Shown here in pieces: positions 2,843 through 63,388 of a stretch of 64,000 nucleotides of DNA (position 1 is the first letter of the stretch; each line of letters starts with the position of its first letter). Under the pieces are notes generated by a model that was given only the letters and a program-made list of their open reading frames with translations, searched no databases and had not been told where the DNA came from. The position numbers and the translations under genes are program-made. The stretch lies in NCBI GenBank assembly GCA_023228875.1, contig JALOAG010000005.1:149801-213800 (forward strand). The letters are read 5' to 3'. This stretch comes from Bacteroidia bacterium (GTDB lineage Bacteria; Bacteroidota; Bacteroidia; NS11-12g; UBA955).

Positions 2843-3811
2843 CTATTGATTGTAACTTTCTTGGCTACTCTTTTTCTTTGCGTCTTTTCTTTGTTTTTTA
2901 CCCCAAGGCATCGGGACGTATTTTTCGGGGTATTTGTTGATGTCAATTAACAACTTGTTTAAGTCTGCTAAGGTCGCAGTTAGTTTGTCATACAATTGAG
3001 TATCATTCACTAATTTACCTGCTGAACCCTCTCCGTTGTCAATCTTTTTGGTGATGGATTCTACGTTTGCCAAGGTCGCATCTAATCTAGCCAGAATATC
3101 AGATTTAGCAAGTGTAGAGGTGAATTCACCCAAATTCTGTAAAGTTTGAGCAAGTTCATTGCGTTTTGCAGCTAACTCAGCAGTCAATAACTTAATGTTG
3201 TCAAGAGTCTTGGTGATATTTTCATGATTGGCAGTAATCATGTTCGAACTTTTATTAGCTAAATTTTCAATTGCGGTCATCACATCTGTTGTTTTAGTAA
3301 TGGCTGCCTGTAATTGACCTGTTTTGACTACCACAGAATCTAAGTAGTCAACTATTCTTTCAATCTTTTTTGCTATAGGATCCACTGATTGAGTAAACTC
3401 ATCCAACAGTGACACTTCAGTACTGGATAGAAGGGTATCACCGGATTCTAAGTAAGTGTTGTAATGATCATTTAAAATCAGTTTAATTGATTTTCCGCCT
3501 AACAAACCATCTGAAACGATTTCAGCGGTTGAATTAATGGGAATGTCAAGAGGCTCAACAATTTTGAGGATTGTAACAATCTTATTTTTTTTAGTATCGC
3601 GAGTCAAGGAGTTGATATATCCCACTTTATATCCATTGAGAAGTACGCTCTGCCCTTTTCTTAATCCGGGTGTTTGGTCATATACTGCAACGTAATAAGT
3701 TTTAGGTTTGAAAAAATCCCCCTCATTAGCCATATAGTTATATCCCAATATCAGGAAGGTGATTGCAACTGCGGTCAGTGCTCCAATTTTACTTTCGTTT
3801 GATACTTTCAA
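2843..3811 (-). CDS. MCE/MlaD family protein
   Basis: N-terminal TM, GL..G..V.LNGYKVGYI, IP.NSTAEI.SDGLLGGK.I, coiled-coil tail ending GSAGKLVNDTQLY. Confidence 0.9.
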   Translation of the reverse strand: MKVSNESKIGALTAVAITFLILGYNYMANEGDFFKPKTYYVAVYDQTPGLRKGQSVLLNGYKVGYINSLTRDTKKNKIVTILKIVEPLDIPINSTAEIVSDGLLGGKSIKLILNDHYNTYLESGDTLLSSTEVSLLDEFTQSVDPIAKKIERIVDYLDSVVVKTGQLQAAITKTTDVMTAIENLANKSSNMITANHENITKTLDNIKLLTAELAAKRNELAQTLQNLGEFTSTLAKSDILARLDATLANVESITKKIDNGEGSAGKLVNDTQLYDKLTATLADLNKLLIDINKYPEKYVPMPWGKKQRKDAKKKSSQESYNQ

Positions 3812-58767: not shown

Positions 58768-59757
58768 ATGTACGGAAACGCTTACATCGACCCCGACCAA
58801 ACCCCTAACAAATATACTCAAGACGAAGATCTTGAAAAACTTGCTGAATTTGAGGCAAGGATTGAAGGAGGAGATAAAATTGAACCCAAAGATTGGATGC
58901 CCAAAGAGTACAGAAGGCAATTAGTAAGAATGATTGAGCAGCATGCTCATTCTGAAATTATTGGAGCTTTGCCTGAAGGTACATGGATAACACGTGCGCC
59001 CGGCTTTAGACGTAAACTGGCACTAATGGCTAAGGTACAAGACGAAGTAGGACATGCTCAATTACTTTATAGCGCTGCCGAAACTCTTGGTAAATCACGT
59101 GAAGAAATGATAAATGACTTAATTAACGGTAAGTCAAAATATTCTAATGTGTTCAATTACCCGGCAGTAACTTGGGCAGACTCTGCCATCATTGCATGGT
59201 TGATAGATGCAGGTGCAATCGTAAATCAACTTGCCAATTCAAAAGGTAGCTATGGTCCCTATTGCAGGGCACTTGAAAGAATTTGTGTAGAAGAATCTTT
59301 TCACTTGAAATATGGACATGATAATGTTGTATTCTTAGCAACCGGCACTAAAACCCAACGCGACATGGTGCAAGATGCGCTCACAAGATGGTGGACTCCT
59401 ATCATGCATTTCTTTGGACCAAGCGACAAAATCTCAGTACACACTGAAACATTGATGAAATGGAAAGTAAAAATGGCTTCAAACGATGAAATGCGCCAAA
59501 CTTTCCTTAATATGTATGTCCCTAAAATTTGGGATTTAGGTCTTGTAATTCCTGACCCAAACTTGAAGAAAAATGAGAGTACAGGACTCTGGGAATATAC
59601 TGAGCCGGATTGGGAAGAATTTAAAAGAGTTATTAATGGTGATGGACCTTGTAATAAAGAAAGACTTGCTGTAAGAAAATATGCTGAAGAAAAAGGAAGA
59701 TGGGTGCGCAAGGCGCTTTTAAAGAAAGATGCAGAATATGTTACTCCGCTTGTTTAA
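58768..59757 (+). CDS. paaA: 1,2-phenylacetyl-CoA epoxidase, subunit A (catalytic)
   Basis: IEPKDWMP..YR, QHAHSEIIG.LPEG.WITRAP, AKVQDEVGH, SYGPY.RA..RIC.EESFH. Confidence 0.96.
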   Translation: MYGNAYIDPDQTPNKYTQDEDLEKLAEFEARIEGGDKIEPKDWMPKEYRRQLVRMIEQHAHSEIIGALPEGTWITRAPGFRRKLALMAKVQDEVGHAQLLYSAAETLGKSREEMINDLINGKSKYSNVFNYPAVTWADSAIIAWLIDAGAIVNQLANSKGSYGPYCRALERICVEESFHLKYGHDNVVFLATGTKTQRDMVQDALTRWWTPIMHFFGPSDKISVHTETLMKWKVKMASNDEMRQTFLNMYVPKIWDLGLVIPDPNLKKNESTGLWEYTEPDWEEFKRVINGDGPCNKERLAVRKYAEEKGRWVRKALLKKDAEYVTPLV

Positions 59758-59778
59758 TTAAATAATGAAAAAGAAAAT

Positions 59779-60156
59779 ATGAAAATACATTCATTAGACC
59801 CTAGAATTACTCGTGCAGAAATAGATAGTGAAAAACCGTTTGAAGTAGCTAAAGAATTAGATCAGTGGCAAACCTATGAGGTTTTTCATCAAACCAAGCG
59901 CGGGCTACAACATCAACATGTAGGTTGTGTTCATGCACCTAACGCAGAAATGGCACTCTTGTTTGCTAAAGAAGTGTATGGACGCAGAGGTATGTGTGTA
60001 AATCTGTGGGTAGCCAAGTCTGCTAATATTTATGCATCTGACTATGAAGATGCAGATATTTTTGAGGCAGAAGAAGTCAAAACATATCGAGATCCGGGTT
60101 ATTATAAAGTGATGGATAGAATTAGAGCATTTAAAGAAAAACAACAATCGTTATGA
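59779..60156 (+). CDS. paaB: 1,2-phenylacetyl-CoA epoxidase, subunit B (N-terminally extended)
   Basis: YEVF, HVGCVHAP.AEMAL..AKEVY.RR...VNLWV. Confidence 0.88.
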   Translation: MKIHSLDPRITRAEIDSEKPFEVAKELDQWQTYEVFHQTKRGLQHQHVGCVHAPNAEMALLFAKEVYGRRGMCVNLWVAKSANIYASDYEDADIFEAEEVKTYRDPGYYKVMDRIRAFKEKQQSL

Positions 60157-60923
60157 ACATATCTGAAAAAGGATTTGAAGCAATCAAGGATTTGCTCTAT
60201 AAAATGGCTGATGACCAATTGATTATTGGGCATAGAAATTCTGAATGGACAGGGTTAGGTCCTGTATTAGAAGAAGATATTGCGTTTTCTTCAATGGCTC
60301 AAGATAAACTTGGACATGCACAAGCGTTATATGAAATTCTTAGCCAAATGGGAGAGGGAGACCCTGATACCATAGCGTTTATGCGTAATGCAGAGCAATT
60401 TCATTGCTGCCATTTGGTTGAACTCCCGATTGGAGAATATGAATTTAGTTTAATGCGACATTTTTTCTTTGATAATGCTGAATTATTACGCTTCGAAATG
60501 TTGGCAAACTCATCTTTCGAACCATTGTCCTTCCTTTCTAAAAAAATTAAAGGTGAAATCAAATATCATACTATGCATGCGGATGTTTGGATATCTCAGC
60601 TGGGCAACGCTTCTGAAGAGAGTAATATTAGAATGCAAAATGCGCTGAATGCCACATTCTCATTGGCACTAGGAATATTTGAAAAAGGAAATTTTGAAGA
60701 TGTGTTAATATCAGAAGGTATTTTTGATGGAGAAGAATCGCTTAAAGCCAAGTGGCTCAATGTAGTGATTCCAATACTTGAAAAGTCAGGGTTGAATGTT
60801 CCGGACCCAAATGCAACAACTGCTTCTATGGGTGGACGTAAAGGAAATCATACCGAACATTTACAATCGCTGTTAAATGAAATGACAGAAGTATTTAGAA
60901 TAGACCCTGCAGCAGAATGGTAG
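60153..60923 (+). CDS. paaC: 1,2-phenylacetyl-CoA epoxidase, subunit C
   Basis: ADD.LI.GHR.SEW.G..P.LEEDIA, KE..YH-like GEIKYH, GRKG.HTEHL..LL.EM. Confidence 0.94.
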   Translation: MNISEKGFEAIKDLLYKMADDQLIIGHRNSEWTGLGPVLEEDIAFSSMAQDKLGHAQALYEILSQMGEGDPDTIAFMRNAEQFHCCHLVELPIGEYEFSLMRHFFFDNAELLRFEMLANSSFEPLSFLSKKIKGEIKYHTMHADVWISQLGNASEESNIRMQNALNATFSLALGIFEKGNFEDVLISEGIFDGEESLKAKWLNVVIPILEKSGLNVPDPNATTASMGGRKGNHTEHLQSLLNEMTEVFRIDPAAEW

Positions 60924-60939
60924 ATAAGCGAGGTGTGAA

Positions 60940-61425
60940 ATGTTAGTTACCCAAGCAGATGTGCTCAATGCGCTCAAAGAAGTAAGCGACCCTGAAATTC
61001 CCACTATTTCTATTGTGGATTTGGGGATTGTTACAAAAATTGTTATTAATCCTGAACAGACATACGTAGAGCTGACTCCTACATTTGCAGGTTGTCCGGC
61101 ACTTAGAATAATGGAAACATTGGTAGTAAATAAACTAAGTGAAAAAGGGTTCGCTAACCCTGTAGCTAAAACAACTTTTGAAGTTCAATGGAATACAAGT
61201 ATGATTTCAGAAGCCGGTTTGTTTGCATTAAAGAAGCATGGACTTGCTCCACCTCAACCGATTGATGGAGAATTAAATTTGAATGATTTAAAGAAAATCC
61301 CTTGCCCTTATTGCGACAGTCCAAATACTGAACTCAAAAGCCCTTTTGGTCCAACTCTCTGTCGTTCAATACACTATTGCAACGATTGCCTGCAAACGTT
61401 CGAGGCGTTTAAACCCGTACAATAA
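60940..61425 (+). CDS. paaD: 1,2-phenylacetyl-CoA epoxidase, subunit D
   Basis: V.DPEIP.ISIVDLG, TPTF.GCPA, CPYCDS.NT, FGPTLCRSIHYC.DCLQTFE.FK. Confidence 0.94.
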   Translation: MLVTQADVLNALKEVSDPEIPTISIVDLGIVTKIVINPEQTYVELTPTFAGCPALRIMETLVVNKLSEKGFANPVAKTTFEVQWNTSMISEAGLFALKKHGLAPPQPIDGELNLNDLKKIPCPYCDSPNTELKSPFGPTLCRSIHYCNDCLQTFEAFKPVQ

Positions 61426-61514
61426 TCCTTGCCGGGTTGCAAACTGATTTATTGTATATCATGCAATAGAGTAGTGATTGCTAATGTTGGACTATCGCAC
61501 TGCAACAGAACTCA

Positions 61515-61982
61515 TTAGCAAAATATGTTGTAATTGACAAAAGCATTGAGCCAATGTGTAAGATTTCCGTCAACGGAGAAATTCTTATCAATGGTCATTC
61601 TAAGATTGTTTTGGGCGAAATGATGTTCAAACAGAGTTGATGAATACACCTGTTGCAAATCATGATTTGAAAGAAGTAAGAGTTCATTGGACAACATTTG
61701 AAAGATGGCGTATTTTAAAATATTTAAGCACAAGTGTTTGAAAAGCAGATTGAGTGCTTTAAAAAAGGAGAGGGGAAGTATATTTGTGAGTTCCCGACAA
61801 GCGAAACCGACCTGCGCTCCATTCAAAAGATACTCAGATACAATAATAGAAAAACTACAAAAATCTAATTTTATAAGGGTACAAAAAGCCTTCCAAAACA
61901 TCAAAAGTCCGTTTTGCGATTTGTAGTATGAATAATACACCAAGCCAAACAAGAGTAAATTATTTGTGTATTTTTGTTGCAT
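61515..61982 (-). other. Unexplained 155-codon ORF, possibly spurious or a degraded gene
   Basis: No recognisable motifs; lies between paaD and the cassette region. Confidence 0.2.
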
Positions 61983-62039
61983 ATATAAATGAGTTTCCGG
62001 CTAGCATAAAAGACTACATCACAACGCTCACAACTCCTA

Positions 62040-62161
62040 TATAAACCACCCAAAAAACCAACTTAAAAAGCATAGTTGAAAAAACAAGTGTGCTTAAAAC
62101 GCTTCTAATGAAGCCGTTTTTGATGTTTTTTTCTTTTTTTAGAGAGTTGTGCAACAGCTAC
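62040..62161 (+). mobile_element. Possible IS (IS1182-like) terminal remnant interrupting an attC-like site
   Basis: Ends in GAGTTGTGCAACAGCTAC (62144-62161), which from memory resembles IS1182-type termini. The open frame leading into it reads ...NLKSIVEKTSVLKTLLMKPFLMFFSFFRELCNSY. No transposase body and no convincing partner inverted repeat. Confidence 0.3.
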
Positions 62162-62178
62162 CCGTGTTAGCACTCGTT
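62162..62178 (-). repeat. Truncated attC-like site downstream of the cassette gene (core TGCTAAC plus start of left arm)
   Basis: Minus strand reads ACGAGTGCTAACACGGG, with the core 13 nt after the stop codon. The core is the exact complement of GTTAGCA upstream of the gene. Confidence 0.55.
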
Positions 62179-62185
62179 TTTCTTT

Positions 62186-63388
62186 TCAATTCGTCAATTT
62201 TGGTCTCTCCGTTTTTACTAAAAGTCCGTTTGCAATAAAACTATCTCCTGTTGTCAATTCTATTGTGTAAGTTAATTGTTCCTCTTCAATTGTCTCAATG
62301 GAAATTATGTTTATAAACTTATTTTCAGTCGGGATAAAAACTCTGTCACCGATTTTTAATTGAATTACTTCAGATGTTTGTTCGTAATTGTTGTTTGATT
62401 TAGTTGGGTTTACTGATGCCCAAATTTTGTCTTCTGTCCAAAATGGGTGGTCGTCAGTTGCAATTATTTCTCTGTCTGAAAAGCGTAGTTTTAAAAGATA
62501 GGTATGTCTTGCTATAGTAAGTTCTGAAACTTTCACTTTGTCCAAATTACCTGTCAAATTATTGTATGTAAGAACCCAATCTTGATTTGTTATTTCTTCT
62601 ATTTTCTTTGTTGAATTGTCAGCCATTGTGATTTGTGTCCCTGCTGCGAAACAATGAACGTCTAAGCCGTCAAAATTGATTTCACTAACAGCAACGTCAT
62701 CGTATTTTGTGCCTTTGTAAATTTCTAAAATCTCTAAGGTTAGAATTAAGTCCTTTGTGCTATCAGTAGATTGAATAGGATTGATTTTAAAAGACTGAGT
62801 GTTGTTAATGTCTTTAAGTTCAAGAATTGCTGTCGGTTTGCCGTTCACAATCATTTTGAACTTTGCTACTCGTGAATTTGCTTTCCACAAGTCAGTATTT
62901 TTAATGTACCCGTTCCAAATTATTATTTCATTTACCCTTGGTGCATATGGTTTGAAATGAAAATTTATTTTATTTCCGATTGAACCGTTTGAGTTGTCAG
63001 GAATCCACGCAGTAAAAAGGTCAAAGTCGTGAATGTTGTCTGGTAAGTATGTTATTTTTCCTTCGTCTTTTAAATACGAAGAAGAGGTTATTTTGTAAGG
63101 TCCACCGCCACAATACCAACTGCAACCAACACCTTGCGTCAATGGACCGTAACCGCTTTCTAAAGAGTCAATCATTTTTTTGTCTTGCTCTGAAAGTTTC
63201 TCATAGTCAATCTCACCCGAATTGATTTTTCCATATTGGTCAAGTGCTTTTTGCCAAATTATTTGGTCTGCTTTTTTAAAGTCATTAGAAGCGTTAACTG
63301 TCGCCTGAATAATCGGCAAATTTTGACCTGAAATCGAAAGTCCCAAAGTCAAAAAGAAAATTGTCAATATGTAAGCTGTCTTTGTCAT
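62186..63388 (-). CDS. Secreted protein: NADase-type glycan-binding/discoidin-like domain plus C-terminal Hint (intein-like) domain; candidate gene-cassette ORF
   Basis: Signal peptide; GCSWYCGGG; DFDLFTAW, IIIWNGY.K....W.AN.RV, EILEIYKG.KY.DVAVSEI; then H-C246FAAGTQITMAD, T311DDH314PF, LKIGDRV, TYTIEL...SFIANGLLVKTE. Confidence 0.8.
   Translation of the reverse strand: MTKTAYILTIFFLTLGLSISGQNLPIIQATVNASNDFKKADQIIWQKALDQYGKINSGEIDYEKLSEQDKKMIDSLESGYGPLTQGVGCSWYCGGGPYKITSSSYLKDEGKITYLPDNIHDFDLFTAWIPDNSNGSIGNKINFHFKPYAPRVNEIIIWNGYIKNTDLWKANSRVAKFKMIVNGKPTAILELKDINNTQSFKINPIQSTDSTKDLILTLEILEIYKGTKYDDVAVSEINFDGLDVHCFAAGTQITMADNSTKKIEEITNQDWVLTYNNLTGNLDKVKVSELTIARHTYLLKLRFSDREIIATDDHPFWTEDKIWASVNPTKSNNNYEQTSEVIQLKIGDRVFIPTENKFINIISIETIEEEQLTYTIELTTGDSFIANGLLVKTERPKLTN

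Follow-up and report, generated by a model that had tools for sequence, protein, structure and literature searches.

Hint domains power protein splicing, Hedgehog lipidation and toxin release. Their first cysteine (Cys1), together with a TxxH motif, drives an N-to-S acyl shift, and C-terminal cleavage and splicing require in addition the cyclisation of an asparagine and a nucleophile at the +1 position. Here we describe a gene for a predicted exported protein ending in a Hint domain, found in a 64,000-nt stretch (36% GC) of contig JALOAG010000005.1 from a Bacteroidia bacterium. This stretch is called the window hereafter, and all coordinates and strands follow its numbering. The Hint domain is preceded by a lectin-like discoidin domain and lacks the His-Asn end of inteins. 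We give a probability of about one half to the following reading, drawn from conserved residues and a structure model: the domain would perform single-turnover autoprocessing, in which an acyl shift at His245-Cys246 is followed by resolution of the thioester, so that the lectin fragment is freed and no splicing takes place.

Class 1 inteins are insertions in a host protein, with a C-extein, and end in His-Asn (block G) followed by Cys, Ser or Thr at the +1 position. In the protein described here, these places are taken by K392-T393 and then E394, and all that follows is a six-residue tail, missing from some homologues. The A-type bacterial intein-like (BIL) domains (6y75/6tmm, 2lwy) are the closest in sequence and structure (21–27% identity), and share with the present domain Cys1, TxxH, HPF..W and F-x-A-N-G-x-x-V. 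Like this domain, for which activity is predicted, they are autoprocessing domains outside conserved host proteins. They end in His-Asn and cut at their own C-terminus, whereas here the end is K-T-E, with nothing downstream to release. BIL domains devoid of the splicing residues yield cleavage products (PMC7664689, PMC7765530).

The Hedgehog HhC domain (1at0, 6tyy) is likewise a C-terminal Hint domain of a secreted protein, uses the N-to-S acyl shift only and has no Asn. A general base near its Cys1, D303 (D46), activates the incoming nucleophile, the variant with a His at this place (D303H) retains activity, and hydrolysis is known to occur on the side (PMC9163320); His295 of the present protein may correspond to this base. 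The protein differs from Hedgehog in having no sterol- or adduct-recognition region (six residues follow Glu394), in its junction, H/CF instead of G/CF, and in having no known acceptor.

Among secreted bacterial proteins whose C-terminal Hint-like domain is devoid of the intein C-terminal motif, there is reportedly a Bdellovibrio and myxobacterial type, described in 2009 by Dori-Bachash. This type and the B-type BIL domains (Hint_2) keep motifs A and B, have no intein C-terminal motif and are often secreted, as is the case here, and N-terminal cleavage is expected or shown for the B-type BIL and secreted Hint-like proteins. The present class differs from B-type BIL domains in lineage and sequence class, in its hosts (Bacteroidota and the Fibrobacteres-Chlorobi-Bacteroidetes, or FCB, group instead of Proteobacteria), and in its V-x-x-E end, His295 and fixed fusion to an NADase-type discoidin domain; the Bdellovibrio type is set apart from it by description, not by sequence comparison. 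The general idea of a secreted bacterial Hint domain without the intein C-terminal motif is already known since the BIL papers of Dassa and Pietrokovski and Buerglin 2008 (PMC2362128).

The C-terminal domain has a Hint fold

The first-pass annotation of the window, made from the letters, had placed a Hint domain at 62186–62653, which runs from the Cys246 codon (62651–62653) through the stop codon (62186–62188). Its residue readings were all recovered in the open reading frame (ORF). The junction and domain start read GLDVH245/C246FAAGTQITMAD, block B (T311-x-x-H314) stands in the context IIAT311-D-D-H314-PFW, and the C-terminus reads GDSFIANGLLV391-K392-T393-E394-RPKLTN, so that FIANGLLV-KTE is indeed followed by a short tail.

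A true Hint fold is present at this C-terminus, with a similarity far past chance. The family profile matched the BUBL1 BIL2 Hint domain of T. thermophila (6y75/6tmm) with E = 4e-21, and the C. thermocellum BIL domain (2lwy) with 4e-10. An AlphaFold2 model was built from an alignment of 69 sequences, with a pLDDT of 90.9 and, for the two domains together, a pTM of 0.81. Compared to known structures with Foldseek, the model was nearest to 6y75 (E = 1e-12, TM-score 0.90), followed by 2lwy (0.89), 6qaz (0.87) and 4o1r (0.84). Overall, TM-scores ranged from 0.84 to 0.90 for BIL domains and from 0.75 to 0.88 for many mini-inteins, whereas Hedgehog 6tyy (0.70) came at rank 50 of the list, after BILs and inteins. 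The model therefore upholds the claim that an exported protein ends in a Hint fold, and a signal peptide is present (see below).

The domain does not fall into any of the named Hint families. A search with Hint family models had been proposed as a check, and all of them remained below their cut-offs: Pfam Hint (PF01079) scored 14.5 bits (cut-off 29.7, match limited to residues 245–279), PT-HINT 14.3 (cut-off 27.7), Hint_2 13.4 bits (cut-off 28.4, match limited to residues 246–295) and Intein_splicing 24.1 (cut-off 35.8), and Vint was sub-cut-off as well. The curated models that passed on the Hint domain were two, NCBIfam TIGR01445 (intein_Nterm, 27.3 for a cut-off of 24.5) and Pfam AXH (PF08517), which was the best-scoring model with 42.3 bits for a cut-off of 33. 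From these scores, the domain is a member of the Hint superfamily that stands outside all its named families. Judging from profiles and model, it is closest to BIL domains and not to Hedgehog. The Hedgehog-type assignment of the first-pass annotation was thus not sustained, as family scores, nearest structures and the missing adduct-recognition region all speak otherwise.

A class of Hint domains ending in V-x-x-E

Among 5.8 billion proteins searched, 408 relatives were found, nearly all of them about 400 aa long and of the same architecture. Their annotation goes no further than 'Hint domain-containing' or 'NADase-type glycan-binding domain-containing' protein. A pattern scan of the GTDB species genomes gave 41 loci, in Flavobacteriales, Bacteroidales, Cytophagales, Chitinophagales and Saprospiraceae, with a few in Ignavibacteria, Fibrobacteria and Chitinispirillales. 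Cultured carriers include Flavobacterium beibuense, Psychroflexus aurantiacus, Xanthocytophaga flavus and Porphyromonas pogonae. A near-identical copy of the gene is present in a landfill metagenome, and the window as such is nearest to metagenome-assembled genomes of Flavobacteriales.

Conservation was analysed in a close set of 106 homologues and in a wider class of 56 sequences, down to 24% identity (162 in total). Thirteen residues are invariant in the close set: D243, V244, C246, F247, H295, D313, H314, P315, W323, N332, Y335, K392 and E394, while H245 and T311 are each found in 105 of the 106. Mean identity to the query is 77% in the discoidin domain, 61% in the Hint domain and 42% in the tail. 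In the wider class, C246, H295, H314, P315 and W323 are each present in 56/56 sequences, T311 and E394 in 55/56, and D313 in 53/56. The residues for N-terminal cleavage that had been pointed out, Cys1 and TxxH, are therefore invariant or nearly so throughout the 162 homologues.

The missing His-Asn terminus proved to be a property of the family, as it occurs in none of its members (about 160 aligned sequences), but the initial reading had overlooked both the conserved V-x-x-E that replaces it and the class-specific His295. In alignments with 6tmm (C1A/N143A) and with relatives that have the canonical LVHNK, K392 falls on the position of the penultimate His, T393 on that of the terminal Asn, and E394 on the +1 position. 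Across the class, the first of these positions varies (G, K, S, A, R, N), as does the second (T, V, Q), so that K392 and T393 were ruled out as catalytic residues. In contrast, Glu is found at the +1 position in 161 of the 162 sequences, and several proteins of the class stop exactly at the equivalent of Glu394. Among the His-Asn-type relatives, H295 is conserved in about 37% and D313 in about 56%. By this comparison of sequences, H295, D313 and E394 are conserved jointly in the V-x-x-E class alone and form a class-specific set.

Searched exhaustively with HMMER, the Hint part by itself gave 2,875 matches, of which the best 150 were sorted into two kinds. The first consists of tandem arrays of 2–7 BIL-like domains, with canonical L-V-H-N-K..C-F junctions. 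The second consists of single C-terminal Hint domains that end in V-x-x-E, with variants VKTE, VGVE, VGTE, VGQE, VAVE and VRVE. In the tandem arrays, the internal domains end in V-H-N, and the last one often ends in V-x-x-E/D, without His-Asn (P0139, P0140, P0166, P0182, P0185, P0237). This switch at the end of the arrays suggests that the V-x-x-E class is a 'terminal' version of the Hint domain, for settings that would require the N-terminal cut alone.

The poly-Hint proteins themselves (P0121, P0122, P0126, P0145, P0236 and others) carry 2–7 Hint domains head to tail, LVHNKGGCFLAGT, with practically nothing between neighbouring units. Their sources include a Nanoarchaeota metagenome-assembled genome (MAG) and a 4,119-aa Mucilaginibacter protein. 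Within the V-x-x-E class, a discoidin domain is carried by 46 of the 56 members. A class member from a Treponema MAG is a 305-aa putative lipoprotein ending LVKTEDVK (contig L043, 1369–2286), and a protein of 186 aa, made of a signal peptide, Q-N-D and the Hint domain only, ends LVKAGEGKK (contig L044, 4730–5290).

Could the domain be a degenerate intein, or the PT-HINT pretoxin domain of a polymorphic toxin minus its C-terminal partner? The intein_Nterm score and the presence of canonical V-H-N BIL arrays among the nearest sequence relatives would agree with this. However, C-extein, toxin domain and homing endonuclease are all missing, the Intein_splicing and PT-HINT models stay sub-cut-off, the proteins keep to a fixed architecture of about 400 aa, and the V-x-x-E end is kept under selection in hundreds of sequences, with no decay. 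We consider such an origin very improbable. A mobile intein proper was ruled out (no C-extein, Asn or endonuclease), and so was a polymorphic-toxin pretoxin Hint (no toxin domain).

Proposed autoprocessing reaction

The reaction that we propose would proceed as follows. After export by Sec, predicted from the signal peptide, the precursor would be cut by signal peptidase I before Gln22. The Hint domain would then fold, and Cys246, aided by Thr311 and His314, would turn the His245-Cys246 bond into a thioester; the formation of this thioester is suggested by the invariant catalytic residues and the fold. As the protein lacks a terminal Asn, a +1 nucleophile and any downstream part to be ligated, the thioester would never enter splicing, and would be resolved at once, most likely by water. 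The absence of His-Asn from the whole family excludes splicing and C-terminal cleavage alike. The water molecule may be activated by Glu394, which holds the +1 position, together with His295 and Asp313, the three residues being packed, in the proposed arrangement, around the site where inteins put Asn and +1. This would leave two products: the lectin-like part (helical region and discoidin domain), set free as a 25-kDa fragment with His245 as its last residue, and the spent Hint fragment of 17.8 kDa. The Hint domain is thus most likely, as far as its residues tell, a single-turnover maturation protease.

Glu394 and His295 are likely the catalysts of thioester resolution, given their conservation and position. 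In the alignment, inteins place at the position of Glu394 the residue that attacks this thioester. As for His295, it ends strand 281–295, where Hedgehog has D46 in the secondary-structure register of the model. The equivalence of His295 to D46 (D303) is plausible but not established: hhalign against Hedgehog 1at0 gave a probability of 24% with an ambiguous gap, so that His295 is a candidate whose register is uncertain by ±3 residues.

Several points weigh against plain autoproteolysis. Cleavage is, for every family member, a prediction from residues and fold, and the role of Glu394 and His295 one from position and conservation only. Mere hydrolysis accounts poorly for a lectin that keeps a throw-away 18-kDa domain. 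The strongly conserved set of nucleophile-activating residues could equally serve transfer to an acceptor, and the release of a cargo does not explain the nearly cargo-less protein of L044.

Hedgehog-like transfer, in which the hydroxyl or amine of an acceptor attacks the thioester at His245 and the lectin fragment becomes covalently anchored, would account for the retention of this costly domain. The acceptor might be an envelope lipid, peptidoglycan or a glycan bound by the discoidin domain, with His295 or Glu394 as general base. The invariant His295 at the end of the strand that carries the Hedgehog base (where a His works, PMC9163320) and the conserved carboxylate at the +1 position would fit such a role, as would the rigid and invariant lectin-Hint junction, F239-x-G-L-D-V-H-C-F, in the two-domain model (pTM 0.81). 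Against it stand the missing adduct- or sterol-recognition region, a tail of six residues that some homologues do not have, neighbouring genes that are not conserved, and the ±3-residue ambiguity of the His295-D46 match. To our knowledge, bacterial Hint domains have no known adduct, and transfer to an acceptor would be without bacterial precedent. We regard it as a rather doubtful alternative.

More specifically, the discoidin domain may recruit a nucleophile of a glycan or of the envelope, which His295 and Glu394 would activate, so that the lectin fragment becomes attached to it covalently, as an ester or amide. Bacteria would then have a counterpart to Hedgehog cholesteroylation, with the N-terminal lectin, and not a C-terminal adduct-recognition region, selecting the acceptor. 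In a variant, the +1 Glu itself may attack the thioester to give a mixed anhydride as acyl-transfer intermediate. We judge this recruitment scheme unlikely. The first-pass annotation had proposed that the N-terminal domain is either released or covalently coupled to an acceptor; with no adduct-recognition region and no conserved neighbour, coupling is possible but unsupported, and plain autoproteolysis is the more economical reading.

Relationship to the AXH domain of ataxin-1

The similarity to AXH covers aa 247–348 (window 62345–62650), that is the first two-thirds of the Hint class. Pfam AXH scored above its cut-off on 48 of the 56 class members, and the family profile matched the AXH domain of ataxin-1 (4j2j) with 3e-07 and the AXH structure 1v06 with 1e-04; the hhalign probability was 95.6%. 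AXH (ataxin-1/HBP1; PF08517; PDB 1oa8, 4j2j, 1v06) and the present domain share the motif F-x-x-G-[ST]-x-I-x-[LM]-A-[ND]-G, and a second one, [HY]-P-F-[WF]...W-[AS]-S. In AXH, a Tyr replaces Cys1, VLVEY replaces IATDDH (with the TDDH of block B), and the C-terminal third of Hint is missing. AXH is eukaryotic, nuclear and non-catalytic, whereas the Hint domain described here keeps the catalytic residues and the full fold. The match therefore shows homology and not shared function. From the alignments, eukaryotic AXH appears to be a relative of this Hint clade that was truncated and inactivated. No paper linking AXH to Hint domains or inteins was found in the open literature searched, although domain databases may already record the link.

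These data bear on a further alternative, namely that the Hint fold is a non-catalytic binding or scaffold module, similar to AXH, and that the protein stays intact. AXH is indeed the best model on the domain, with the scores just given, and stand-alone secreted Hint proteins such as that of L044 occur. However, AXH has neither Cys1 nor the block-B Thr and His nor the C-terminal third, whereas about 160 sequences keep Cys246, Thr311 and His314 with hardly an exception, which is expected only if the chemistry is in use. A purely structural role is for this reason improbable.

Organisation of the gene and its product

The features of the gene are listed in Table 1.

Table 1. Position of the gene and of the features of its predicted product in the window.
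Feature	Position	Strand	Basis or remark
Whole gene	62186..63388	(-)	400-aa precursor, 45.3 kDa
Signal peptide, aa 1-21, MTKTAYILTIFFLTLGLSISG	63326..63388	(-)	Read from sequence; predicted signal peptidase I cut exposes Gln22
N-terminal helical region, aa 22-90	63119..63325	(-)	AlphaFold2 helices 39-56 and 67-77; conservation
NADase-type discoidin / F5-8 type C glycan-binding domain, aa 91-240	62669..63118	(-)	Pfam, NCBIfam, PDB, Foldseek
Predicted scissile junction, D243-V244-H245 / C246	62651..62662	(-)	Conservation
Hint domain, aa 246-394	62207..62653	(-)	Profile matches, AlphaFold2 model, Foldseek
His295	62504..62506	(-)	End of strand 281-295; class-specific
Block B, T311-D312-D313-H314, then invariant P315	62447..62458	(-)	Conservation
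K392-T393-E394 in place of His-Asn-(+1)	62207..62215	(-)	Alignment
Six-residue tail RPKLTN and stop codon	62186..62206	(-)	Conservation poor; dispensable in homologues

Without its signal peptide, the protein has a computed mass of 43.0 kDa, and the predicted cut would divide it into an N fragment of 25.3 kDa (residues 22–245) and a Hint fragment of 17.8 kDa (246–400). Gln22 is conserved in at least 90% of the homologues, which is consistent with the Q-rule of Bacteroidetes signal peptidase I substrates (PMC5837995). The 400-aa protein has no lipobox Cys, no C-terminal domain of the type IX secretion system (T9SS) and no toxin domain. A lipoprotein (no lipobox) and a T9SS cargo (no Por_Secre_tail) were accordingly ruled out.

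The discoidin domain was recognised by Pfam PF25302 (NADase_transloc; 5e-40, 137.5 bits for a cut-off of 27) and by NCBIfam NF047619 (6e-36, 123.4 bits for a cut-off of 38). It also matched the translocation domain of SPN, the NAD+ glycohydrolase of S. pyogenes (PDB 7ji1, 1.9e-05), and CBM32-type domains in Foldseek. Glycan binding is predicted from these scores. The discoidin / F5-8 type C jelly roll is common to SPN and the present protein, but it precedes the toxin domain in SPN, whereas here it precedes the Hint domain and there is no toxin.

The protein contains three cysteines, C89, C93 and C246, the last at the catalytic position. The helical region ends in an invariant loop, C89-S-W-Y-C93-G-G-G (aa 89–96, window 63101–63124), and residues 88–94 are the sole segment of the model with a pLDDT below 50. 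A disulfide between C89 and C93, or a redox connection to Cys246, is conceivable.

Genomic context and a downstream repeat

Comparison with four distant homologues and 46 loci showed neither a conserved neighbourhood nor a conserved candidate for a partner or acceptor gene near the Hint gene. The ORFs that lie upstream (one of 137 aa, one of 55 aa and one for a 355-aa CarboxypepD_reg-like protein) were found only in a near-identical contig, and the window contains no paralogue of the Hint gene. On the other side, an ordinary paaABCD set (PaaA-D by Pfam, phenylacetyl-CoA oxygenase; 58768–61425, + strand) converges on the Hint gene, to which it is unrelated. The 760-bp gap between the end of paaD (61425) and the Hint gene (61426–62185) contains no convincing gene; a 155-aa ORF in it (61515..61982, - strand) matched nothing in Pfam, and none of 47 loci had a homologue. 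Around the Hint gene, promoter-like sites were at background level only, and a terminator-like hairpin (62101–62114) stood out in the promoter and terminator scan. It lies inside a repeat.

This repeat, directly after the Hint stop codon (~62012–62170, ~158 nt), is a truncated copy of an element resembling a miniature inverted-repeat transposable element (MITE). The full unit is 470–600 nt long, with terminal inverted repeats of ~16 nt, GTAGCTGTTGCACAAC ... GTTGTGCAACAGGCAC, and its copies are 91–99% identical. In one metagenome, 13 copies were found on 8 stretches, each just past the stop codon of an unrelated gene, and in the landfill run the contig of the repeat had a depth of 700–1900x, versus 37x for the flanks. 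The repeat had no Rfam match, and RNA folding gave nothing. An integron attC site was ruled out, as a unit of 470–600 nt with 16-nt inverted repeats is more MITE-like.

Contig L001 (3,754 bp), from another sample, carries an identical Hint gene in a block of four genes (355-aa CarboxypepD_reg-like, 137 aa, 55 aa, Hint protein). Its nt 1–96 are identical to nt 3659–3754, and these terminal 96 nt correspond to window 62025–62120 on the opposite strand. Therefore, either a copy of the repeat stands on each side of the block, or the contig was assembled as a circle; the window ends short of the position of the second copy.

Significance

No description of this Bacteroidota family, of its fixed discoidin fusion or of the V-x-x-E/His295 signature was found in the literature searched, and the three appear to be undescribed. 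The locus defines a populous, uncharacterised Hint class that counts hundreds of sequences in Bacteroidota and, more widely, in the FCB group. Should resolution of the thioester indeed fall to Glu394 and His295, an intein-like site would have been turned into a single-cut protease or an acyl-transferase, which would also provide a compact, Asn-free self-cleaving tag for protein engineering. Finally, this clade seems to have given rise to the eukaryotic ataxin-1 AXH domain, which would provide AXH with an evolutionary origin.

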